A DNA stretch of 64,000 nucleotides from Chloroflexota bacterium (GTDB taxonomy: Bacteria > Chloroflexota > Limnocylindria > Limnocylindrales > CSP1-4): assembly GCA_947475545.1 (NCBI GenBank), contig CANJLL010000001.1, forward strand, positions 618,157-682,156, in the 5' to 3' direction. Positions 36,560 through 48,897 of this stretch are shown one piece after another. The notes beneath the pieces are model-generated. The model had not been told where the DNA came from. It saw only the letters and a list, made by a program, of their open reading frames with translations, and searched no databases. Position numbers and translations under genes: made by a program. Every line of letters starts with the position of its first letter. Position 1 is the stretch's first letter.

Positions 36560-37162
36560 TCACTCTGCGTGGGTTCGCTTGGCCACGGGGGCCGCGGTCG
36601 CTCGGTTCTCCGAGCCGGTGGTGGGAGCGGCGCTTGCCGACCGTCCCTTGACCTCCAGCTCCCAGACCTTGCGGTCGGCGCTCAGGACCTCCAGGGCGCG
36701 GGGCTGACCCTTCCAGCCCAGGATGTCGACGGTCTTGTCTTCCAGCGCCTTGTAGGTGTCGAAGAAGTGCTCGATCTCGACCAGCCGGTGTGGTCGAACC
36801 TGGTCGAGCCGCTCGACGTGCGCCTGGTGGAGATCGTCGACGGCCACGCACAGGATCTTGAAGTCGGCACCCTTCTCGTCGCTCATCTCCAGCACGCCGA
36901 TGGGGCGCGCCCAGACGTGACAGCCAGGGAAGGTGGGTTCGTCGATCAGCAGGAGGGCATCCGTGTGATCGCCGTCGTCCGCTCGGGTGCCCTCGATGAA
37001 GCCGTAGTCAAAGTTGTAGTGGACGGCCGAGGCAAGGACCCGGTCCAGCCGGAAGACGCCGGCCTCTTCGTCGTACTCGTACTTGTTGCGGCTGCCCCGA
37101 GGAATCTCGACGACGACCTCGATGATGTCGGGAAAGTGCTCCGCGTGCCTGGTCATGCGCAA
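36560..37162 (-). CDS. ppa: Inorganic pyrophosphatase (family I).
   Basis: IEVVVEIPRGSRNKYEYDEEAGVFRLDRVL...NFDYGFIEGT...DGDHTDAL is a near-consensus family I PPase. Confidence 0.9.
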   Translation of the reverse strand: MRMTRHAEHFPDIIEVVVEIPRGSRNKYEYDEEAGVFRLDRVLASAVHYNFDYGFIEGTRADDGDHTDALLLIDEPTFPGCHVWARPIGVLEMSDEKGADFKILCVAVDDLHQAHVERLDQVRPHRLVEIEHFFDTYKALEDKTVDILGWKGQPRALEVLSADRKVWELEVKGRSASAAPTTGSENRATAAPVAKRTHAE

Positions 37163-37983
37163 ACCTTACCCCCGACCGGCTCGCGCCGTCCCGACTGGTC
37201 GCGCGAGGGCGGCGTTGCGCCGTCCCGCGGGCGACGCAGACAATCAAACCCGCTGCCGCGCACACGAAAACGCCCGAAGGAACTGCTGGGAGCGGAGCTC
37301 GGAGCGGAGCGCGGCGGGCCTTGATGTGATCGCTGCCTGCCTCGTCCGGTCCGGCGCCAACCCGGCCAGAGCGGTGAAGCTCAGTCCTGGTCAACGGCGG
37401 CGCTGCCGGGATCACTCCCAACCTCGCCTGACCGATCCAACGGCCCCTTCGGGCAAGACGAAATGTATGCGCGGGCGGCGGGCGGCACAACGGACTTGTC
37501 CACGAGATTCGCGCCGGACGAGGTTGGGTTCTCCACCAACTTCGGCCGGCTGTGGACGACAAGTGGATAGCTGGGTCCGGCCTTCGGCGGGTCAGTATCG
37601 ATGGGCGGGCCGCACAGACGCCGAGACGCCAGGATGCCCACCCGCCACCGGCCGCCCGTCACCGGACTCCCACCCGGATGGCGTTCGACGACAGGCGACG
37701 GTTTGGCAGGCCGCCCGGGACCCCGTCGGGCGGCGAATCGCCACCGGATGTCCACCACCTTGGAATCTGGGTCCGACCACGTCGCGACGACCCGCCGGGG
37801 GGGGCCGCCGACCGCGGAGACGCACCCAACGCCATCACCCTGGGAATCCGGCGAAACTGCTGCTCTCCGACGAGGGCGTGCGAGGCGCCAACGCGATCAT
37901 CGGCCGAGTGCCCTTGCCGGCACGCTCCCGCGCGACCGCGGTCGGACGTGCGTCGACAAGCACGCTGGCCCCCGACGCCCCCG

Positions 37984-38020
37984 GCCGCGGCTCAGTCGTT
38001 CCTGCCGCGGCTCAGTCGTT
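37984..38020. repeat. Tandem direct duplication of GCCGCGGCTCAGTCGTT (2 × 17 nt with a 3-nt spacer). It spans the stop codon of the 38012..39091 gene.
   Basis: Copies at 37984..38000 and 38004..38020 are identical. Each contains the 8-bp palindrome GCCGCGGC. Confidence 0.6.
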
Positions 38021-39091
38021 GTAGAGGCGTTCCTCGATGAGCTTCTCCTGCACGGTCCGACCGTTGGGGTCGAAGCAGGAGTACTCGAAGTGCTTCTCGA
38101 ACTCGACGTCCACGTTGTCCTGGCCGCCGCGGTTCTTCTCCACCGAGACCACCACCCAGTCGCGGAAGCGCTGTGCCTGGTACGGGTTGAACTCGATGTT
38201 GACCTTGGCGACGATGTGGTACTTCTCGTTCAGGATGAGGATGATGTCGGCCTCGTAGTTAATCGCCGACGAGCCGCGCAGGTGGAAGTTGCGCAGGCGC
38301 GACGCCTTGAGGCCTTCCTTGTCCGCGGCCACGATCGCGACCATCGGCACGTCCTCGGACAACGCGATGTCCTTGAGCCCGTTGACGATGAACGTGACCT
38401 TCTCCGTCTCGGTCGTTGGCTCCGGGATCTGCGGCACCTTCTGCAAGTAGTCGATGACCACCATGAGCTGCCGGTCCCTCGACAGCGTCCGGTGCTGCTG
38501 GACCAACTTGCGGATGTTGTCGATGGTGCTGGCCGTCTGCGAGCCGCGGAGCAGGAAGAGGTTCTGGCCGTAGCGCGCGATCCGCTCGACCGACGGCCGC
38601 AGGCGCGGATTGTCGGCGAGGTTGAGCTTGGCGCCGCCGTCCTCCATCCAGGTGCGCACGATCTCGCTCCGGACGTCCTGGATGCGGATGGCGCCGTTGC
38701 GGTTGGGGAGGTGCGCCAGCGCCGACTCCAGTGCCAGCAGCCGGTTGAGCAGGTAGAGCTCGTCGTGCTCGAAGCAGATATAGAGGACGTTGGCCTGGCC
38801 ACCCAGCGCGACATTGCGCGCCATCTGGAGGGCGAGCGTCGTCTTGCCTGTCCCCTGCGCGCCGCCGATCAGGAGCAGCTCGCCGGGGCGCAGCCCGCCG
38901 CCGATCGTCTTGTCGAGCGGGGTGAAGCCCAGCGGCACCGGCTGGTATTCCGTGACGTTGCCGCTGGCGATCTTGTCGTTGAGGTCGACCAGGACGTCCA
39001 GGGCGGAGCGCGGCGACATGCTGCCATTGGCGGTGTCAAGCCGCCAGCGCAGCCCGTCACCCATCGACATCTCGGCTTCAACTGCGCTCAA
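38012..39091 (-). CDS. Stand-alone DnaB-helicase C-terminal-domain-like RecA-fold ATPase. Its GC content is noticeably lower than that of its neighbours.
   Basis: Walker A LIGGAQGTGKTTLALQMA, then YICFEHDELYLLNRLLALES (DnaB SLEMS-like), and Walker B LMVVIDYLQ. It has no N-terminal DnaB or primase-interaction domain. Codons are AT3-rich (aag, ttc, atc) compared with the flanks. Confidence 0.7.
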   Translation of the reverse strand: MSAVEAEMSMGDGLRWRLDTANGSMSPRSALDVLVDLNDKIASGNVTEYQPVPLGFTPLDKTIGGGLRPGELLLIGGAQGTGKTTLALQMARNVALGGQANVLYICFEHDELYLLNRLLALESALAHLPNRNGAIRIQDVRSEIVRTWMEDGGAKLNLADNPRLRPSVERIARYGQNLFLLRGSQTASTIDNIRKLVQQHRTLSRDRQLMVVIDYLQKVPQIPEPTTETEKVTFIVNGLKDIALSEDVPMVAIVAADKEGLKASRLRNFHLRGSSAINYEADIILILNEKYHIVAKVNIEFNPYQAQRFRDWVVVSVEKNRGGQDNVDVEFEKHFEYSCFDPNGRTVQEKLIEERLYND

Positions 39092-39210: not shown

Positions 39211-40602
39211 CTAGCCCAGGCCGGTCGACGCCAGCTCGTCGAACATGCGGATGACCGTCCGGATCCCCGTCTCGTGATTCGCCAACACCAGCGACTCGTT
39301 TGGCGCGTGCGCGTTGTCGTCCGGGTTGGAGAAGCCCAGGAGCACGGTCGACAGCCCAAGGATGGATTCGAAGCTGGCGGTGACGGGGATGGAGCCGCCC
39401 TCGCGCAGGTAGACCGGCGCGCGCCCGAAGGTGGCCTCGAGTGCCCTGGCCGCCGCGCGCGTCGCGGGGTGGTCGATGGGAGTCAGGCTGGGCCGGCCGC
39501 CATGGAGGTTCTGGACCTCGACCCGGACGCCGACCGGGGCCAGCGCCAGGACATGGTCGCGGACCAGCGCAAAGATCCTGTGCGGGTCCTGCTTGGCGAC
39601 GAGACGGCAGCTCACCTTGGCGTGGGCGTGGGCAGGGATGATGGTCTTGCTCCCCTCCCCCTGGAAGCCGCCCCAGATGCCGTTGACGTCGAGTGTGGGC
39701 CGTGCGCCCCGGCGCTCGAGGACCGTGTAGCCCGCCTCACCGACCAGTGCCGGGACGCCGATCTCGAGGCGATACGCCTCCTCATCGAGGGGCAGCGCCG
39801 CGAGCGCCGCCCGGTCCGCCTCCGTGAGGGGGACGACGTCGTCGTAGAAGCCCGGCACCAGGACCTTCCCGTCTGGCCCCTTGAGTCCCGTGATGATCCG
39901 GGCCAGGGCGTTGGCCGGGTTCTCCACCACGCCGCCGAACCCGCCCGAGTGGACGTCGACCGTTGGGCCCGTGACGTCCACCTGGCAGTACATGAGCCCG
40001 CGCAGGCTGATCGTGATGGCGGGCACGTTGCCCTGGAAGAACGCGGTATCGCTGATCACCGCGACATCGGCACGCAGCCGATCGCGGTTCGCCACGAGCC
40101 ACGCGTCCAGGTTCTGGGAGCCAAACTCCTCTTCGCCCTCGAAGACAATCCGGAGATTGACCGGCAGACGCCCGCGCGTCGCCATCAGCGCCTCGATGGC
40201 TCGAAGGTGCAGGTGGAGCTGACCCTTGTCGTCCGCCGCGCCACGGGCGAGGATGCGGCCGTCGCGGATGATGGGATCGAAGGGAGCGGACTCCCACATG
40301 TCCAGCGGGTCCACGGGCTGGACGTCGTAGTGGCAGTAGATCAGCACGGTCGGAGCGCCGTCGGCGTGCAGCCAGTCGCCATACACGACGGGGTGCCCGC
40401 CAGTCTCGCTGACCTCGACGTGCTCGATCCCGCTCGACCGCAGGTCGGCGGCGACCCACGCGGCGGCGGCCCGGCAGTCGGCGGCGTGCTCGGGCAGCGC
40501 GGAGATGCTGGGGATGCGCAGGAAGGCCTTGAGCGACTCCAGGCGTCGCTCGGCATTCTCCTGGAGCCAGGTCTCGATGGCTGACGACTGGTCGGTCACG
40601 AA
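39211..40602 (-). CDS. M20-family metallopeptidase (ArgE/DapE/CPG2-like dipeptidase). The start is trimmed to a GTG before TDQSSAIETWL.
   Basis: M20 metal-binding motifs (CHYDVQP...; ARGAADDKGQ; EGEEEFGS) and a dimerisation-domain insert. Confidence 0.75.
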   Translation of the reverse strand, partial: FVTDQSSAIETWLQENAERRLESLKAFLRIPSISALPEHAADCRAAAAWVAADLRSSGIEHVEVSETGGHPVVYGDWLHADGAPTVLIYCHYDVQPVDPLDMWESAPFDPIIRDGRILARGAADDKGQLHLHLRAIEALMATRGRLPVNLRIVFEGEEEFGSQNLDAWLVANRDRLRADVAVISDTAFFQGNVPAITISLRGLMYCQVDVTGPTVDVHSGGFGGVVENPANALARIITGLKGPDGKVLVPGFYDDVVPLTEADRAALAALPLDEEAYRLEIGVPALVGEAGYTVLERRGARPTLDVNGIWGGFQGEGSKTIIPAHAHAKVSCRLVAKQDPHRIFALVRDHVLALAPVGVRVEVQNLHGGRPSLTPIDHPATRAAARALEATFGRAPVYLREGGSIPVTASFESILGLSTVLLGFSNPDDNAHAPNESLVLANHETGIRTVIRMFDELASTGLG

Positions 40603-40757
40603 GCACCCCTTTCGCGTCGAGGGTAGACGGGGCGCGGGGGCGGCCCGGGAGGCAGCCTCGGCCAGCGGTTGGAGCGATGGTAGTCCGCCCAAACGAAGAG
40701 CGGGCCTCACGGCCCGCTCCAGCGTCTTGCGATGTACCCGGCCGTGCCGCGCGGCGT

Positions 40758-42647
40758 TCAGGCGGGGTTGAGGCCCACCGCCGGAAGCCCCTTGGGCAGG
40801 TTGATCAACTTGGGCGGGCTACCGTGCACGTCCTGCTTGGGCGGCAGGTCCGTGAAGAGGGATTCGAAGCCCTCGGAGTCCACGGTCTCCTCGGCGATCA
40901 GCTTGGCGGCGAGCGCGTCGAGCTTGTCGCGGTGGGTCTCGAGCACATCCATCGCCCGCTCGTAGGCGCGGTCGATGATGGCGCGCACCTCGTCGTCGAT
41001 GGTCTTGGCGACCTCGTCGGAGTAGTTGCGCTGCTCGCCGATCTCTCGGCCCAGGAAGACGAGCTCGTCGCGCTTCCCGAACGAGAGCGGGCCGAGCTTG
41101 TCGCTCATCCCGAACTCGGTGACCATGCGACGAGCCAGGGCCGTCGCCTTCTCGATGTCGTTGCTGGCGCCAGTGGTGGTATCGCCGAAGACCAGCCGCT
41201 CCGAGGCAGTCCCGCCGAGCAACCCGGCGATCTTGTCCTCGAACTCGGTCTTGCTCTGCAGGTAGCGATCCTCCGACGGCAGGGCCATCGTGTAGCCGAG
41301 CGCCATGCCGCGGCTGATGATCGTGACCTTGCTGACCGGGTCGCACTTGGGAAGGATCCGCTGCACCACGGCGTGACCGCCCTCGTGGTAGGCAATGATC
41401 AGCTTCTCGGGGTCCGAGATGATCCTGGACTTGCGCTCCGGGCCGGCGATGATCCGGTCCAGTGCCTCCTGGAACTCCGGGGTGCCAATCGACTTCTTGT
41501 TGCGGCGTGCCGCGAGGATAGCCGCCTCGTTCATGAGGTTGGCGAGGTCCGCGCCCGAGAAGCCGGGCGACTGACGGGCGACGCCATCCAGATCCACGGA
41601 CTTGTCGAGGGGCTTGCCCTTGACATGGACCTTGAGGATCGCGACGCGGCCGCGCATATCGGGTCGATCCAGGATGACCTGCCGGTCGAACCGGCCGGGG
41701 CGCAGGAGCGCCGGGTCAAGGACGTCCGGCCGGTTGGTGGCCGCGACAACGATCACGTTGGTGTTGGTGTCGAAGCCGTCCATCTCGACGAGGATCTGGT
41801 TGAGGGTCTGCTCGCGTTCGTCGTGGGAGCCGCCCAGGCCGGCGCCGCGCTGGCGCCCGACTGCGTCGATCTCATCCACGAAGACGATGCACGGTGAGTT
41901 GCGCTTGGCCTGGTCGAACAGGTCGCGGACGCGGCTGGCGCCAACGCCCACGAACATCTCGACGAACTCCGAGCCCGAGATGCTGAAGAACGGCACCCCG
42001 GCCTCGCCGGCGACGGCCCGTGCCATAAGGGTCTTGCCCGTGCCTGGCGGGCCCACCAGCAGCACGCCGCGCGGGATCCGCGCGCCGAGCGTGTTGAACT
42101 TCTCCGGGTACTTCAGGAACTCGACGACTTCCTGGAGCTCCATCTTGGCCTCGTCCACGCCTGCAACGTCGTTGAACGTGACGACGCTCTTGTTCCCCAG
42201 GAACATGCGCGCGCGGCTCTTGCCGAACGAGAGGGCCTGATTATTGGTGCCCTGCGCCTGGCGCATCATGAAGAAGATGAAGCCGCCGATCACGAGGAGC
42301 GGCAGGACCGCGGTGATCAGGATCCCCAGCCAGCCGGTGTCCGGGGGCAGCTCCGCCTTGTAGATTTTGGTATCGAACGTCTGGCCACCGGCCGTGGCCG
42401 CCTCCCTCATGTCCTTGAGGACATCCGTGAGCACGGTGGGCACGACGACGGTGTACTGGGCCCCGTTCTTCGGCTTGACGGCGAGCGTGGTGTCCTTCTG
42501 GATAACTTCCTGCACCTGCTGGGCTTGGACATTCGCCAGGAATGTGCCGTAGCCCACGCGTTCAGCGGTGGTGCCCTGATTGATCCACGTAAGCAAGAGC
42601 AATGAGGTGCCGATGACGAGGATGAGCATCACCAGCCCGTTGCGCAT
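40758..42647 (-). CDS. ftsH: ATP-dependent zinc metalloprotease FtsH. The start is trimmed to MRNGLVML.
   Basis: Two N-terminal TM helices, an AAA module (GPPGTGKT; IVFVDEIDA; SRF), and the HEGGH zinc site. Confidence 0.95.
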
Positions 42648-42816
42648 GAACTTCGAGTTCAAGCGAAGCCTCCGAGTGGAACGGCTGACCGCCGACCAAG
42701 CGACGGTATGGACGGAGTATAGCGTTGGGCTGGTGAAGCGCCCCCGAGGCACCCGGAGGCCGTGCGCCCGCCATGGGTCGCGGCACGCGCCATGCGCGCT
42801 CGCCCGGTGAGAGGGG

Positions 42817-42891
42817 TGGTAGCAGGGACAGGATTCGAACCTGTGACCTAGCGATTATGAGCCGCTTGCTCTGCCGCTGAGCTACCCTGCC
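42817..42891 (-). tRNA. tRNA-Met (anticodon CAU) with encoded CCA. It has elongator-type features (G1·U72 pair; no 3×GC anticodon stem).
   Basis: The reverse complement folds as a cloverleaf: acceptor GGCAGGG/CCCTGCT, D stem GCTC/GAGC, anticodon stem AGCGG/TCGCT with loop CTCATAA, T stem ACAGG/CCTGT with loop TTCGAAT, then discriminator A and CCA. Confidence 0.85.
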
Positions 42892-42941: not shown

Positions 42942-45816
42942 TCATTCTAGCGCAGCCACACCGGTGTGACCGCCATCCCCGCCCGGCCGAGCCGCGGCCA
43001 GTCCCGCCGACACCGCGCCAGGTCGTTCCCACGGCGGCAGTCCCGGCTTGGCTGGGCCCACCAACGAGGAGCACCGGTACGAGTCTGGCGCGGCAGGGCG
43101 CGCCAGCAGGTGCCCCTGGCCGTACAGGCAGCCCAGGTCCACGAGCACCTGGAGTTGCATCTCCGTCTCGATACCCTCCGCCACGGCACTCAGGCCCAGG
43201 GCATCGCCCAGCGCCACGATGGCCCGGACCATCGAGGTGGATTCACCTCCTGGGCCAAGGCGAGCGACCAGGGAACCGTCGACCTTGAGGACATCCACAG
43301 GCAGCGCGTGCAGGTAGCTGAGCGACGAGTAGCCCGTCCCGAAGTCGTCGACCGCCAGGCGGACGCCCAGGGCGCGGATGCGCTCCAGCTGGCCCACCAT
43401 CGAGGGGCCACCCTGGACCACGAGGCGCTCCGGGAACTCCAGGGTGAGCCGCCCGGGCTCCATGCCGGTCGCGGCCAGGACGGCCGGAATCTCGGCGACG
43501 AAGCCACCCTCCCGTACCTGGCGCTCCGAGACGTTGACGGAGATCGGCATCGGCAGGGCGTCGCCGTCGAGCAGGTCGCGGCACTCGCGGCAAGCCCGCT
43601 CCAGCGCCCAGCGACCGATCGGGACGATCAGCCCACCGGACTCGGCCACGGGGATGAAGCGACGCGGTGAGACGAACCCGCGCAAGGGATGGCGCCAGCG
43701 CAGCAGCGCCTCGAGTCCCTGGGCCACGCCCGACCGCAGCCGGATGATGGGTTGATAGGCCAGGAAGAATTGGTCCCCGGCCAACGCCACCGCGAGGTCT
43801 CGCTGCATGTCGATGTTGTCCGCCACCGTGTCCGACAGCACACGGGTGAACATCTCCACGCGTCCCTTGCCTTGCATCTTCACCGAGTACATGGCGAGGT
43901 CCGCGTCGCGCAGGAGGTCCGAGACGGTGCTGGCCCCCGGGATCGACGGCGATGCCGACGCTGACGCGCACGGTCGCCTCATGCCCCACCACCATGACGG
44001 GCGGGTCCAGGGCGCGCAGCAGGCGGTCCGCTATCCCGCGGGCGGTGGACTCGGGCTCGTCGTCCTCGATGAGGATCGCGAACTCGTCGCCGCCCAGCCG
44101 GGCGACCGTGTCACCGTCCCGGGCGCTCTCGCGGAGCCGGAGCGCGACGACGCGGAGCACCTGGTCCCCGACGAGGTGTCCGAGTGTGTCATTGACGGAC
44201 TTGAAATCGTCGAGATCGATGAACAGGACGACCATCTGGCCGCGGCGACCGCGACGGAGGAGGTGCTGGACAAATCGGTCCTCGAACAGGGTTCGATTGG
44301 CCAGGCCGATCAACGGGTCATGGAGGGCCTGCTCTGCGAGGCGGCCCTCGAGGGCCCTCCGGGCGGTGACGTCCCGGCCCTTCAGGACGATCCCGGCGAC
44401 ATTCGGGTCGTCGAGGAGGTCCGTGGCCTTGAGCTCCATCCATGCGCGCCCGCCGTCGCTCGTCAGCAGCTCGACCTCGCCCTCGGCAAACGGTTTGCCC
44501 TGGCTGTCGAGGAGCAAGCGGGTGAAGGCGGCCCATGATTCGGGCGCGATGAGCTCGCGCAGCATCACGCCCGCCAGCTCCCCGTCGCTGCGCAGGACGG
44601 CCTCTGCGGAGGGTGTGCTCGAGACCATGCGGCCCTCTGCATCCACGACCAGGATCCGGTCGGACGAGCGTTGAACCAGCGAGCGGAAGCGCGCCTCGGA
44701 CATCCGCGTCGCCAACGCCGCGCTCATCTCGGCGTGGACTCGGGACGCGAGAACCTGGCGAACGAAGACGAGCAAGGTCGGGACAGCGCCTCCAACCGGG
44801 GCCAACGGGCCGGCCTGCGATCCGAATGAGAGCAGGAGGACGTAGCCGAAACCGGCAGCCGCGTACGGCAGGAGACTGATGCCGATGGCACGCGCGCTCG
44901 CCGGCGATGCGGCGTCGGTGTGTCGCGGGACCCCCTCGGCGGCAGCCGTGGTGAGCGCGATGGACGGGAGGTAGAAGACGTCGGGCATTCCTCCCAGGTC
45001 GTAGCTCTCGTTGTGTTCCAGCCACGCCCACAGGATGTCCGCCACGAAGAATGATCCGAACGCACCGACCAGCAGGGTGAGCCACGCTCCGTCGGCCAGT
45101 GCGCCCCGCCGCAGCCAGGCCAGCGCCACGCCGACGAGCAACATCGCACTGCCCGCCGGATAGACCACCTCCAACAGTCGCACCGTCAAGTTCGGGCCAT
45201 CCGGCAACCGCAGCCCGGGGCCCACGAGGCCGACCACGAGCGCAATCAGCGCCACCACCAGGACGATCAACGCGTCGACGTCGAGGCGGGCGCGCTCGAT
45301 GGGGCGCAGCCAGACGTGCGACACGGCAACCAGGCCGGCGAACAGCAGTGGATAGGCGGCGAGGTAGGCCACATCCGCGATCGACGGGGACGCAACACCT
45401 CCGCCGACGACGGCGGCCAGCGACCACGCCACGTCACCCAGCCAGTTCGCGGCGACCCCCAGGCTCAGGAGCGCCCAGCCCGTCCGGGTGGGAACCGGCA
45501 CGCGCCGGTCGCGGGCCGTGGCCACCACCGACCACAGGGCCCCGAAGCCCAGGTTGATGGAGGCGAGGGCCGTTCCCGCCACGATGCTCAGACGCGGGGC
45601 GTCGGTGACGAGGCTGAGCACGAGCCACGCGAAGTAGCCCACGGTGCCACCAAGCACGGCCAGGAGCCGGCGGCTACGCCGACGGGTGGCGGGCAACGCC
45701 CGGCGGACCAGCCCGCCCCAGGCGTGCCTTCCCCGATCCAGCCCGCTCCGCGTAATCTCGATGGCGGCCGCCAATCTCGTGCGTTCGCACGACGGGACGC
45801 CGTCCCAGCAGCCCAC
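42942..45816 (-). pseudogene. Membrane-anchored PAS–GGDEF–EAL c-di-GMP enzyme, disrupted by a 1-nt frameshift between the GGDEF and EAL domains at a CCCCCGGG tract (about 43936..43943).
   Basis: Reading frame A carries the TM region, PAS, and GGDEF domain (RLGGDEFAILI...VSVGIAVDPG). Frame B continues with ...STVSDLLRDADLAMYSVK followed by a complete EAL domain (QGLEALLRW...DDFGTGYSSL...). The two frames switch within gcccccggg. Confidence 0.7.
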
Positions 45817-45897
45817 CCGCGGCCGGCAGTGGTGGGCTATGGGCCACAGGTCATCTATCTTCCGGGGCCGGCGGCCAGATTCAGCCTCGGGCGCGGG

Positions 45898-46425
45898 TCA
45901 GGTCGCTGGACCGAACAGGAGTGTCAGCCACGAATCCAGTGGTGAGCGGCGTTCCGACACCGCACCAATTCGCACGCCGGCGGTTCCAGGCGCGTCGGGT
46001 GCCAGGCTGGGCACGGGCTTCTGGAGCGAGAACGGCACCTCGCGCGCAGCGCCCAGCCGATAGGCGCGCGCCTGCTGGACGATGAACTCCTGGCGCTGGA
46101 TCAGCCGAAGCTCCCCATCAAGTGCCGCGATGTCCGAGACGAGTTGGCGGTTTGCGGCGGCGAGCGCGCCAGCCCGGCCCGAGGCGGCCGTGACGTCGCC
46201 CACCTGGCGGACGAATGCGAACGCCAGCCAGGTGACCGCGAGGACGACGGCCAGGACCAGTACCCGATGGCGAGTGAACCCGGCCACCGACAGGGTCCGG
46301 AGGTCGGCAGTGGGCACCCGTTCGGGTCCATCCGGGCCCGGCCGGAGCCGGGATCCGGCCCTCGAGGCCAACCCCTCGCCGTTAGGGGCGGGGTTGAGCG
46401 GTGCAGCGTCGGGCCGGCGGGACAT
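45898..46425 (-). CDS. Septum-formation initiator family protein (FtsB/DivIC-like). The start is placed at MSRRPD, while the track ORF begins at an upstream TTG.
   Basis: A single TM helix (VLVLAVVLAVTWLAFAFV) is followed by a coiled-coil ANRQLVSDIAALDGELRLIQRQEFIVQQAR, as in FtsB/DivIC. A -35/-10 pair sits just upstream of this ATG. Confidence 0.5.
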   Translation of the reverse strand: MSRRPDAAPLNPAPNGEGLASRAGSRLRPGPDGPERVPTADLRTLSVAGFTRHRVLVLAVVLAVTWLAFAFVRQVGDVTAASGRAGALAAANRQLVSDIAALDGELRLIQRQEFIVQQARAYRLGAAREVPFSLQKPVPSLAPDAPGTAGVRIGAVSERRSPLDSWLTLLFGPAT

Positions 46426-46434
46426 CGTCGCCGC

Positions 46435-46463
46435 AGCGTAGCTGCCGGTAGCTGACGTGTCAA
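46435..46463 (-). promoter_or_regulatory. Candidate sigma-70-type promoter: TTGACA, 17-nt spacer, TACGCT, lying 9 nt upstream of the ftsB-like ATG. The mRNA would be near-leaderless.
   Basis: The minus-strand sequence reads TTGACAcgtcagctaccggcagcTACGCTgcggcgacgATG. The -35 hexamer is a perfect consensus, the spacer is 17 nt, and the -10 fits TAnnnT. Confidence 0.35.
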
Positions 46464-46473
46464 ACGCGAAACC

Positions 46474-46494
46474 CGTGACAGCGAACCTGTCACG
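46474..46494. promoter_or_regulatory. Perfect 8-5-8 inverted repeat, CGTGACAG-cgaac-CTGTCACG, in the divergent ftsB-like/mrfA intergenic region. Candidate operator site.
   Basis: The two arms are exact reverse complements. It lies about 55 nt upstream of the mrfA start and just upstream of the -35 of the divergent promoter. Confidence 0.3.
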
Positions 46495-46545
46495 AGCACG
46501 GGCCAACCTCCGCTAGACTGACGCGAAAGCGAACGGTCGTTCTGT

Positions 46546-48897
46546 TTGGAGGCCAACGTGCGAACCTACGCCCCCGCGTCCGTGGAGTCCGTGCTGGAGC
46601 GCCTGCTCGAGGAGCCGTCGCTCGCCCGCGGCGTCGTCCACCACCAGGTCATCCCACCCCGGGAGGCCCTGTACGCCCCGTTCCCGAGCTGGCTGGATCC
46701 CCGCCTCCGGGCCGGGCTGGCCCGTCGCGGCATCAGCCAGCTGTATGCCCACCAGGCGGAGGCGCTGGAGGCAGTGCACGCGGGCCAGGACGTCGTGGTG
46801 GTCACGCCCACGGCGTCGGGCAAGACGCTGTGCTATGCGCTACCCGTCCTGCAGGCCCTGCGGGAGGACCCCGCGGCACGCGCGCTCTTCCTCTTCCCCA
46901 CCAAGGCGCTCGGCCAGGACCAGGTCGCCGAGCTCTCGGAGCTGGCACGCGCCGCCGAGATCGATCTCGCCGCGGCCACGTATGACGGTGACACGCCGGC
47001 TCCCATCCGCTCGGCCATCCGCGGGGCCGGCCAGGTCGTGGTGACCAACCCCGACATGCTCCATTCGGCCATCCTCCCGCACCACACCAAGTGGTTCCAG
47101 CTGTTCGAGCAGCTCCGGGTGATCGTCATCGACGAGCTCCACACCTACCGGGGCGTGTTCGGGAGCCACGTCGCCAACGTCCTCCGGCGGCTGCTCCGGC
47201 TGTGCGCGCACTACGGATCCAACCCAGTGATCGTGTGCTGCTCGGCCACCATCGGGAACCCGGCGGAGCTGGCCGCCCAGCTGACAGGGCGGACGCCGCT
47301 CCTGATCGACCGGAACGGTGCGCCGCGCGGCGAGCGGCACGTCCTGCTGGTCAACCCGCCCATCATGGATCCGTCCACCGGAGCGCGCGCCTCGGCGCTG
47401 ACCCACGCTCAGCGCTGGGCGCTCCCCTTCCTGCAGGCAGGCCGCCAGACCATCGTCTTCGGCAGGGCCCGCGTGGCTGTGGAGATCCTGCTGACGGGCC
47501 TCCGGGAATCGCTCCGCGAGAGCCGCGGGCCACGCTCCCGGATCCGCGGGTATCGGGGCGGCTACCTGCCCACGGAGCGGCGCGCGATCGAGCGGGGGCT
47601 CCGGAACGGGGAGATCCTTGGGGTCGTCTCCACCAACGCCCTGGAGCTGGGCGTGGATATTGGGACGCTGGACGTGGCGGTGCTCGCCGGCTACCCAGGA
47701 TCTGTAGCGGGGACCTGGCAGCAGCTGGGCCGGGCCGGGCGGCGCCTGGACACGTCGGTCGGCATCCTCGTCGCCTCGTCGTCCCCGGTCGACCAGTACG
47801 TCATCCACCACCCCGAGTTCCTGGACCGATCGCCGGAGGAGGCCCGGGTGGACCCGGACAACCTCCACGTGCTGTTCGCCCATCTCCGGTGCGCCACCTT
47901 CGAGCGACCGTTTGACCCCGGGGAGGTCTTTGGGCCCGCTCCAGCGGACGACCTGCTGGCCTTCCTCGCGGAGGAGGGACACGTCCGTCAGTCCGGTGAC
48001 GGACGCTGGTACTGGAGCTCGGAGAACTTCCCGGCGTCAGAGATCAGCCTGCGGACCGCGGCACCGGAGAATGTCGTGATCATCGACTCCACGCCGGACC
48101 GGCCACGCGTCCTGGGCGAAGTGGACCTCTTCTCGGCCCAGGTGCTCGTCCACGAACGGGCCATCTATATCCACGAATCGGTCCAGTACTACGTGGACCG
48201 CCTGGAGTGGCACGAGCGGAAGGCGTACGTCCACAAGGTGGACGTCGACCACTACACCTACGCCAACCGGGCGGTGACGCTGAAGCCATTGGACGTCTTT
48301 GCGGATGCGGCGGTCACAGGCGGCCACCGAGTTCATGGCGAGGTGATGGTGGCCAGCCTGGTGACCCTTTTCAAGAAGCTGAAGTTCGGGACGGATGAGA
48401 ACGTCGGCTGGGGGCCCATCGATCTCCCGGAGCTGGAGCTCCAGACGACGGCCTACTGGCTGACAGCCGAGACGGCCGCCGCGGGCTGGCGACGCGATGA
48501 CCTGGACGTCGCGCTCATCGGGGCCGGGCGGGCCCTCCAGGCGGTGGCGGCGGTCCTGCTCATGGTGGATCCTCGCGACCTGGGCCTGGTTGCCCAGGTC
48601 CGCTCGCCACACCAGGACGCACCCACGATCTACCTGTACGAGTCGGTTCCGGGCGGCATCGGGCTCTCGGAGCGGCTCTGGGCGCGACACGCGGAGCTGG
48701 TCGACGGGGCGGCGGACCTGGTGCGGGCGTGCGATTGCGGGAGCGGATGCCCGGCCTGCACGGGACCCCGGCTGGATCCCCAGGTTGACGCGAAGTCCCT
48801 GGCGCTCCGCCTCCTCGCCGCGCTGGGAGCCCGGGCCGCGGCGCGCCTGCCGGTCGTCCAGGGCGGGACCGGCCCTGCCGCCGAGCGCGTGGCCTGA
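46546..48897 (+). CDS. mrfA: MrfA-like DExH-box helicase with a C-terminal DUF1998 Cys4 Zn-binding domain. It uses a TTG start; an alternative GTG is at 46556.
   Basis: Motif I VVTPTASGKT, motif II VIDELH, motif VI QQLGRAGR, and a C-terminal CDCGSGCPAC cluster characteristic of DUF1998 (the MrfA/YprA family). Confidence 0.8.
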   Translation: MEANVRTYAPASVESVLERLLEEPSLARGVVHHQVIPPREALYAPFPSWLDPRLRAGLARRGISQLYAHQAEALEAVHAGQDVVVVTPTASGKTLCYALPVLQALREDPAARALFLFPTKALGQDQVAELSELARAAEIDLAAATYDGDTPAPIRSAIRGAGQVVVTNPDMLHSAILPHHTKWFQLFEQLRVIVIDELHTYRGVFGSHVANVLRRLLRLCAHYGSNPVIVCCSATIGNPAELAAQLTGRTPLLIDRNGAPRGERHVLLVNPPIMDPSTGARASALTHAQRWALPFLQAGRQTIVFGRARVAVEILLTGLRESLRESRGPRSRIRGYRGGYLPTERRAIERGLRNGEILGVVSTNALELGVDIGTLDVAVLAGYPGSVAGTWQQLGRAGRRLDTSVGILVASSSPVDQYVIHHPEFLDRSPEEARVDPDNLHVLFAHLRCATFERPFDPGEVFGPAPADDLLAFLAEEGHVRQSGDGRWYWSSENFPASEISLRTAAPENVVIIDSTPDRPRVLGEVDLFSAQVLVHERAIYIHESVQYYVDRLEWHERKAYVHKVDVDHYTYANRAVTLKPLDVFADAAVTGGHRVHGEVMVASLVTLFKKLKFGTDENVGWGPIDLPELELQTTAYWLTAETAAAGWRRDDLDVALIGAGRALQAVAAVLLMVDPRDLGLVAQVRSPHQDAPTIYLYESVPGGIGLSERLWARHAELVDGAADLVRACDCGSGCPACTGPRLDPQVDAKSLALRLLAALGARAAARLPVVQGGTGPAAERVA

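Follow-up and report, generated by a model that had tools for sequence, protein, structure and literature searches.

An intergenic element upstream of ppa in Candidatus Limnocylindrales is a candidate gene for a structured small RNA preceded by DnaA-box-like sites

In a 64-kb stretch of DNA from an uncultured Chloroflexota bacterium (Candidatus Limnocylindrales, GC 71%; the whole stretch is called the window below), 849 bp lie between ppa, the gene for inorganic pyrophosphatase, and the gene for an ATPase resembling the C-terminal domain of DnaB, which raises the question of what this gap contains. An earlier note on this DNA had described the gap as about 850 bp without a coding-like open reading frame (ORF), exceptional in a gene-packed window, and had offered two explanations: a horizontally acquired or degraded mobile or phage module, or a structured RNA gene. 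Our analysis supports the RNA gene. A conserved island of about 300 nt (37266-37570, minus strand), which combines a promoter signature with a covarying fold, recurs in 91 sequences from genomes and metagenomes, and we give a probability of roughly 0.68 to the reading that it is an independent gene for a previously undescribed structured small RNA (sRNA) with a predicted transcript of ~190 nt.

The description of the gap itself was borne out. GC content by codon phase is 0.62–0.78 in all three phases, that is, there is no codon-phase signal, whereas the flanking genes show values of about 0.3–0.4, 0.6–0.7 and 0.9 or more. A crude gene call based on GC content at third codon positions (GC3) yields 48 gene-like ORFs in the window with a median gap of 82 nt, and by this call the 849 bp are the largest truly non-coding gap; a larger apparent gap of 2.5 kb at 43983-46545 is a GGDEF/EAL gene that the GC3 filter overlooked. 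On the ppa side the gap is bounded by position 37162, or by 37156 if an ATG is the ppa start.

When the gap was compared with 80 related loci by blastn and nhmmer, a single conserved stretch emerged (~37247-37572), present in 24 loci at 69–78% identity and in these always just upstream of ppa. Even in the closest relative, locus L081, whose ATPase is 92% identical and whose gap measures 1274 bp, only the island aligns (82.6% over 258 nt). Scanning metagenomes with a pattern brought in 66 further loci, and the alignment made with a covariance model comprises 91 sequences, of which 76 are distinct. The relatives of the genes at this locus are Chloroflexota metagenome-assembled genomes, mostly labelled Candidatus Limnocylindrales. 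On a tree of the M20 peptidase and ATPase proteins, the island is present at this site in one large clade (20 of its 21 members) and in two smaller groups that include the window, and absent at the site from the other major clade. Its presence is phylogenetically coherent, and its distribution agrees with vertical inheritance combined with loss or relocation. In about 70% of the related genomes the site is without the element, and ppa lies 16–400 nt after the ATPase gene. The RNA pattern was absent from the viral contigs scanned. The island consists of four DnaA-box-like sites, a sigma-70-type promoter and the ~190-nt RNA, all on the minus strand:

37495..37570, minus strand: whole array of DnaA-box-like sites
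37570-37562, minus strand: box 1, CTATCCACT, direct, DnaA-box-like
37558-37551, minus strand: box 2, CGTCCACA, direct, DnaA-box-like
37539-37529, minus strand: box 3, TTGGTGGAGAA, inverted, DnaA-box-like
37506-37495, minus strand: box 4, CTCGTGGACAAG, inverted (complement TTGTCCACG)
37490-37485, minus strand: predicted -35 element TTGTGC, followed by a 17-nt spacer
37467-37462, minus strand: predicted sigma-70-type -10 element TACATT
37266..37455, minus strand: candidate ~190-nt structured RNA (covariance-model hit of 154.9 bits at 37264-37460)
37455-37443 with 37283-37271, minus strand: closing stem P1, 13 bp, invariant, UGCCCGAAGGGGC with GUUCCUUCGGGCG
37331-37323, minus strand: invariant apical GAUCACAUC capping a long hairpin
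37270-37267, minus strand: U run directly after the 3′ strand of P1

The consensus structure predicted by RNAalifold is multi-branched and comprises 52 pairs. Stem P1, which contains two G-U pairs and a terminal U-G, encloses a hairpin that ends in a GNRA tetraloop and is interrupted by symmetric AG/AG and 1x1 internal loops, small hairpins in which GCAA is a frequent cap, and the long hairpin, whose cap motif GA-GAU-CAC-AUC-AA is invariant and flanked by conserved non-canonical internal loops. In the 24 sequences anchored by their neighbouring proteins, 97.6% of the cells are paired and 13 of the 52 pairs show double changes, against 5.3 in shuffled controls and 4–8 when the pairing partners are slid. 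The signal grows with the 76 distinct sequences: compensatory changes are seen at 28 of the 52 pairs, and 97% of cells are paired, whereas shuffles give 9.8 pairs and slid partners 7–16 pairs with 34–47% pairing, and none of 500 shuffles reaches the observed value. G-U pairs make up 14.8% of the cells, and pairing in the helices reaches 97.0% when they are read in the sense of ppa, as compared to 83.3% on the opposite strand; the RNA strand is therefore the ppa-sense strand. Possible further long-range helices, such as a candidate that pairs CGGU with ACCG, are seen in single-sequence folds.

P1 and the GAUCACAUC hairpin are retained, as are boxes and promoter, in two divergent members of the family (L095:3218-3422 and L144:1035-1240, both minus strand). 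Their folding z-scores, -7.6 for L095 and -8.4 for L144, indicate very stable folding, and in both the predicted fold has P1, an inner stem and six hairpins, with GCAA loops on five of the hairpins.

Directly upstream of the RNA, the alignment of the 76 distinct sequences displays a promoter signature. In the GTTG of the -35 element, TT is conserved to 100% and the final G to 99%, the spacer is constant in length (17 nt) and variable in sequence, and the -10 element follows the consensus TAnnGT, with its T, A and final T conserved to 100%. It ends 7 nt before P1, where the conserved RNA starts. At the level of consensus this is a sigma-70-type promoter signature with its predicted +1 at the first base of P1. 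A generic promoter and terminator scanner made no calls in the gap, and the promoter was recognised from the alignment alone; the scanner is silent on it because its criteria are stricter. At the other end, all 91 sequences have UUUU, UUUC or CUUU directly after the GC-rich P1. From this arrangement we infer that transcription would start on the first base of P1 or a few nucleotides away from it at most, that the transcript would fold as P1 enclosing several hairpins, one with a GNRA loop and one capped by GAUCACAUC, and that the short U run after the 3′ strand of P1 probably ends it.

The four boxes stand at fixed offsets from the RNA start (-107, -96, -77 and -44) throughout the 76 distinct sequences, with the core TCCAC(A/G) conserved to 87–100%. 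In the alignment, the direct boxes, (T/C)(G/T)TCCACA and CGTCCACA, are spaced 11 nt apart, and the inverted boxes read TTCGTGGA(Y)GA and TTCGTGGATAAG, the complement of the latter being TTATCCACG. Written in the orientation of a DnaA box, the family consensus is (T/C)(G/T)TCCACA for box 1, CGTCCACA for box 2, TC(A/G)TCCACG for box 3 and TTATCCACG for box 4. The consensus of DnaA boxes is TTATCCACA, or TTGTCCACA in high-GC bacteria. The boxes fit TT[A/G]TCCAC[A/G] at 7–9 of 9 positions, and at least three 9-mers near TTATCCACA or TTGTCCACA fall within about 100 bp, as in a DnaA-box cluster. Of the four boxes in the window, two resemble the consensus well and two less so; TTRTCCACR has only two perfect matches in the 64 kb, one of them TTGTCCACG at 37496-37504, and box 1 of L095 is a perfect TTGTCCACA. 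Twelve matches to TTCGTGGAYRA elsewhere in the window all lie on the coding strand of genes, so that they reflect codon-level sequence and are uninformative; a pair at 48146/48167 lies inside ORFs.

With two direct and two inverted boxes at fixed helical spacing, the array most likely binds a regulator that would control synthesis of the RNA, possibly DnaA. That DnaA itself exerts this control is suggested by resemblance to the consensus, and we put it forward tentatively, as a doubtful point. DnaA-box clusters outside oriC are known from B. subtilis and from E. coli (datA, DARS1/2) as well as from the promoters of dnaA, sda and gidA. Like these, the array combines several 9-mers in both orientations within ~80 bp beside a promoter and with conserved spacing; unlike these, it fronts a structured RNA and not a protein gene, and it has neither an IHF site nor an AT-rich element. 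An origin of replication was also considered and is unlikely, as an AT-rich stretch is missing, the flanking genes share one strand, and relatives lack the module or carry it elsewhere.

If DnaA bound to the four-box array set the level of the RNA, the locus would represent a regulatory RNA locus of a new class, one responsive to the replication initiator. The RNA would then have a protein-binding or catalytic role, or conversely its transcription might modulate the availability of DnaA, by analogy with datA and DARS. We regard this extended proposal as rather unlikely; were it true, it would link the status of chromosome replication to cell physiology in abundant uncultured soil bacteria. The box array yields a concrete, testable hypothesis on the regulation of the RNA.

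With respect to known RNAs, the candidate shares with stand-alone structured bacterial sRNAs such as 6S RNA, mycobacterial Ms1, the raiA-motif RNA and comparable candidates from comparative genomics a length of ~190 nt, an own predicted promoter, predicted 5′ and 3′ ends placed in a long closing stem, strong sequence conservation, covarying helices, GNRA loops and an intergenic position co-oriented with the downstream gene. It differs from 6S RNA (RF00013) and raiA in that their Rfam models do not match it even at E values up to 10, and from 6S RNA in its fold, which is a multi-branch junction and not a rod with a central bubble: hairpins supported by covariation occupy the place of the bubble, and L144 and L095 show six GNRA-capped hairpins. 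An upstream array of DnaA-box-like sites is, to our knowledge, no feature of genes of the 6S, Ms1 or raiA type. A literature search on non-coding RNAs of Chloroflexi or Limnocylindria, on DnaA-regulated sRNAs and on the ATPase family returned nothing relevant. Limnocylindria are abundant Chloroflexota of soil and freshwater with almost no cultured members, and we know of no experimentally described non-coding RNA from them. The RNA is a further candidate for the small group of large structured bacterial RNAs that still await a function. Its invariant closing stem, its hairpins with GNRA caps and its conserved non-canonical internal loops are features that usually go with protein binding, tertiary folding or catalysis.

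The earlier note had proposed an Rfam scan as a check and would have counted its failure, together with missing remnant homology and a conserved arrangement and GC content across relatives, as an argument for ordinary intergenic DNA. The scan was negative: Rfam 15 gave no match for the gap, for a 241-nt core or for the variants L144, L095 and L120, even at E values up to 10, with the best scores in the gap at chance level (E 1.2–5.9), and in the whole window only a tRNA (42820-42891) passes the gathering threshold. The RNA family is simply not in Rfam. Judged by the missing ncRNA match, the element would have been wrongly dismissed, and a negative Rfam scan is hence insufficient to dismiss a long intergenic gap.

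Several points weigh against an independent sRNA gene. Neither P1 nor the GAUCACAUC hairpin ever varies, so that neither gives support by covariation, and in the 66 sequences from metagenomes both were set by the search pattern; their invariance could reflect a constraint at the DNA level or on the specific sequence. The alignment A2 was fitted to the model and therefore favours the model's structure. The predicted terminator is atypical, consisting of a 13-bp stem around ~160 nt followed by 3–4 U, and the scanner did not call it. Regulators other than DnaA, such as winged-helix response regulators, also bind direct repeats spaced by 11 nt. Finally, the downstream gene lies on the same strand as the RNA in every case seen, and only ~25 nt separate the RNA from the next gene in L095 and L144, where a Shine-Dalgarno sequence but no obvious promoter precedes that gene; in these two loci transcription may read through, and the RNA may hence act as a leader. 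The genes and further features around the island are:

36560..37162, minus strand: ppa, inorganic pyrophosphatase, the downstream neighbour (Pfam Pyrophosphatase, E 5.7e-49)
37154..37168, minus strand: -10-like hexamer TAAGGT of ppa (37168-37163), with an ATG at 37156, 6 nt on, a leaderless-type arrangement
37571..37980, no strand: fast-evolving unconserved spacer of ~410 nt, with no gene, RNA or protein remnant detected
37981..38020, no strand: 20-nt tandem duplication across the ATPase stop codon, two copies, 95% identical (repeat search)
38012..39091, minus strand: ATPase of 359 aa consisting of a DnaB C-terminal domain only (Pfam DnaB_C, E 5e-27)
39211-40710, minus strand: M20 peptidase
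40758-42752, minus strand: FtsH

The local gene order, entirely on the minus strand, is FtsH, M20 peptidase, ATPase, gap, ppa, a LigT-like phosphoesterase and a TrpB-like enzyme. In this setting the RNA could instead be a cis-acting 5′ leader, that is, a riboswitch or protein-binding attenuator in which a ligand-stabilised P1 together with the U run terminates transcription before the downstream gene. P1 directly followed by U residues is what an OFF switch needs, the element is always co-oriented with the gene that follows, nearly all metagenome matches lie ~40–170 nt upstream of ppa, and ppa, the purine nucleoside phosphorylase gene and rpiB, which follows the latter downstream of the element in L095 and L144, all touch phosphate or ribose-phosphate metabolism. 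Besides ppa, other genes also stand next in line. In L095 and L144 the complete unit of boxes, promoter and RNA stands between the gene of an RDD-like membrane protein and purine nucleoside phosphorylase-rpiB, in L120 it adjoins an oxidoreductase gene, a histidine kinase gene (~800 aa) lies between RNA and ppa in L103 and L137 and an ion channel gene in L124, and L130 has the same histidine kinase after the RNA and no ppa match. That the unit recurs in unrelated neighbourhoods favours an independent gene.

Moreover, ppa keeps a -10-like hexamer of its own. TACACT, TAGACT or TATCGT occurs between RNA and ppa in 61 of 69 distinct spacers as compared to 5.4% of shuffles, and in 84 of 137 loci a TAnnnT, of the TA(C/G)ACT type, precedes an in-frame start codon of ppa by 6–8 nt, as compared to 1.8% of shuffles. 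The ppa mRNA thus appears to be leaderless, judging from this spacing, and the ppa start in the window is likely the ATG at 37156 and not the TTG at 37162. A leader with no promoter between itself and its gene is consequently not what is found at ppa, L095 and L144 being the exceptions. The many relatives whose ppa follows the ATPase gene without the element, the upstream operator array, which is typical of regulated sRNA genes and not of riboswitch operons, and the absence of an evident alternative anti-terminator pairing also speak against a leader, and we consider it unlikely.

A further alternative is that the island acts as DNA: a cluster of DnaA boxes that titrates or remodels DnaA, in the manner of the B. 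subtilis clusters and of E. coli datA and DARS, or a secondary origin-like site, in which case the apparent conservation of an RNA would reflect DNA-binding or structural constraint. The four conserved boxes at fixed spacing would suit such a unit, as would the invariance of P1 and the GAUCACAUC hairpin, which do not covary, and the DnaB-like gene that adjoins the element in most genomes. The 28 compensatory pairs and the strand-specific G-U pairing described above nevertheless point to RNA, and the promoter signature sits exactly at the start of P1. In addition, an AT-rich unwinding element is missing (GC 0.68–0.70), the flanking genes share one strand, unlike at an origin, and the module changes its context and is absent at the site in most relatives. 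We therefore hold a DNA-level unit to be very unlikely.

In the view of the earlier note, the ATPase gene and the gap might together form an acquired or decayed mobile or phage module; the gap would then be pseudogene debris. The junction between ATPase and ppa genes is indeed a hot spot of insertion, with distances from 16 bp to 5.3 kb among 77 loci, and relatives carry inserted genes, palindromes resembling repetitive extragenic palindromic (REP) sequences or miniature inverted-repeat transposable elements (MITEs), and duplicated ATPase 3′ ends at this place. The unconserved segment 37571-37980 could be debris. It has no nucleotide match to L081 or any other locus by blastn and nhmmer, no intact gene aligns to it among 147 loci, no Rfam match and no tRNA (ARAGORN) was found in it, and the z-scores of -1.1 and -0.1 for 37575-38011 give no folding signal. 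The proposed search of the gap for integrase or replication-gene remnants found none: tblastn with all ORFs from the gaps of more than 50 related loci matched the RNA module only. These remaining ~410 nt of the gap are unconstrained spacer at an insertion-prone intergenic site.

For the ATPase, the earlier note had correctly recognised a DnaB C-terminal domain without the N-terminal one. The only Pfam match is DnaB_C (residues 52-165 and a second stretch); no DnaB N-terminal family of Pfam matches, about 50 residues precede the RecA-like domain, and the alignment to DnaB begins at DnaB residue ~160. Against the NCBIfam model for DnaB (TIGR00665) the protein scores 84.4 bits, far below the equivalog cutoff of 385. 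It contains the Walker A motif GAQGTGKT, the Walker B motif VVIDYLQ and LRGSS..YEAD, and its AlphaFold2 (AF2) model (pLDDT 89) finds DnaB as the best Foldseek matches (9dls and 4esv, E 5e-20) and aligns to the ATPase domain of G40P (3bh0) with a TMt of 0.84. The protein shares with DnaB and G40P the RecA-like fold, the Walker motifs and a linker helix ahead of the domain, and its LRGSSAINYEAD motif aligns with LRESGxIEQDAD of DnaB; it differs from DnaB in lacking the N-terminal primase-binding domain, in being only 20–24% identical to solved DnaBs and in belonging to a family of its own.

The suspected AT-richer codons were not confirmed. The GC3 of the ATPase gene is 0.94, joint highest among six neighbouring genes, and its relative synonymous codon usage correlates with that of the pooled neighbours (r = 0.93). 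Its overall GC of 0.651 compares with 0.655 for FtsH and 0.657 for ppa, and the lower GC comes from codon position 2 (GC 0.37), where it mirrors a protein with more F, Y, M, I, N and K. Amino-acid composition, and not foreign origin, can hence be behind a local dip in GC. The order FtsH-M20-ATPase is kept in all 80 fetched genome loci, with ppa downstream wherever the sequence reaches it, so that the conserved synteny reads FtsH-M20-ATPase-ppa-LigT. Of more than 2,800 matches, the best 120 are 81–92% identical. The wider family (222 clusters at 50% identity, E < 1e-30) has full-length members of ~330–370 aa and extends across Chloroflexota to Anaerolineae and into Acidimicrobiales, whereas viral relatives reach only 22–29% identity. 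By its codon usage, synteny and conservation, the ATPase is a vertically inherited, strongly conserved core paralogue of the DnaB C-terminal domain, unrelated to the RNA, and is not foreign DNA. Together with the absence of protein remnants from the gap and of the RNA pattern from the viral contigs, this largely refutes the mobile module for the ATPase, and as an account of ATPase gene and gap we consider it highly improbable.

The 35-codon ORF at 37463..37570, singled out by the earlier note as the only mildly protein-like piece of the gap, does exist and its frame is open in 51 of the 76 distinct sequences, but we reject it as a small protein: it is the promoter and box region read on the opposite strand, outside the most conserved segment, its ATG is the complement of the -10 element and is present in only 1 of 76 sequences, column identity by codon position (0.65, 0.65, 0.58) is at position 3 as expected for non-coding DNA, tblastn similarity of the island falls in all six frames, and the RNA alignment contains indels of 1–2 nt.

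At the locus itself, the ATPase is among the most conserved proteins, with 82–87% identity across genomes whose M20 peptidases, encoded next to it, share 60–75% and whose ppa products share 66–80%. The tandem duplication that the earlier note had seen across its stop codon is there, measured as two copies of 20 nt and not of 17. Both copies contain the palindromic GCCGCGGC, so that they can pair as an 8-bp hairpin in a minimum free energy fold, and neither of the closest relatives, L081 and L082, shares the duplication, the alignment with them stopping 6 nt past the stop codon.

In many relatives, a hairpin-like element of ~47 nt (CCTCTCCGAGGYCCGAGG...CCATCGGCCCGAGGA) follows the ATPase stop codon and is itself followed by a second copy of the last 20–27 nt of the gene, stop included (L003:3187-3290, L013:7078-7150, L020:7036-7125, L028:7036-7112, L056:2561-2640, L059:6347-6440, L078:3547-3620 and, in two copies, L043:4158-4290). 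Element and repeated gene end together resemble a target-site duplication or an att-like repeat; the window carries at the same spot the 20-nt duplication only. A second, palindromic element of ~120 nt, sometimes partly duplicated, lies directly 3′ of the ATPase stop codon (reference L037:7072-7192; also L030:4187-4307, L046:10990-11112, L071:10586-10708 and ~25 other loci) and recurs in the FtsH-M20 gap and after the TrpB-like gene, which makes it a dispersed REP/MITE-like repeat downstream of stop codons. Some gaps without the RNA hold repeat arrays, namely three copies of GGTCACCCCACGACCGAA in L005:7081-7397, three copies of its complement TTCGTTCGTGGGGTGA in L048:7045-7300 and CCAAC/GTTGG repeats in L025:2787-3117, which may be operator arrays or other small repeats.

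Over the 64 kb of the window, the gene-like ORFs are very strongly biased in strand, 44 of the 48 being encoded on the minus strand. At 42942-45816 (minus strand), the ORF of a membrane sensor with PAS and GGDEF domains (43243-45816) overlaps an EAL ORF (42942-43982) in a different frame, and the pair resembles a single GGDEF-EAL gene frameshifted near 43,950, which would be a pseudogene or the result of an assembly error.

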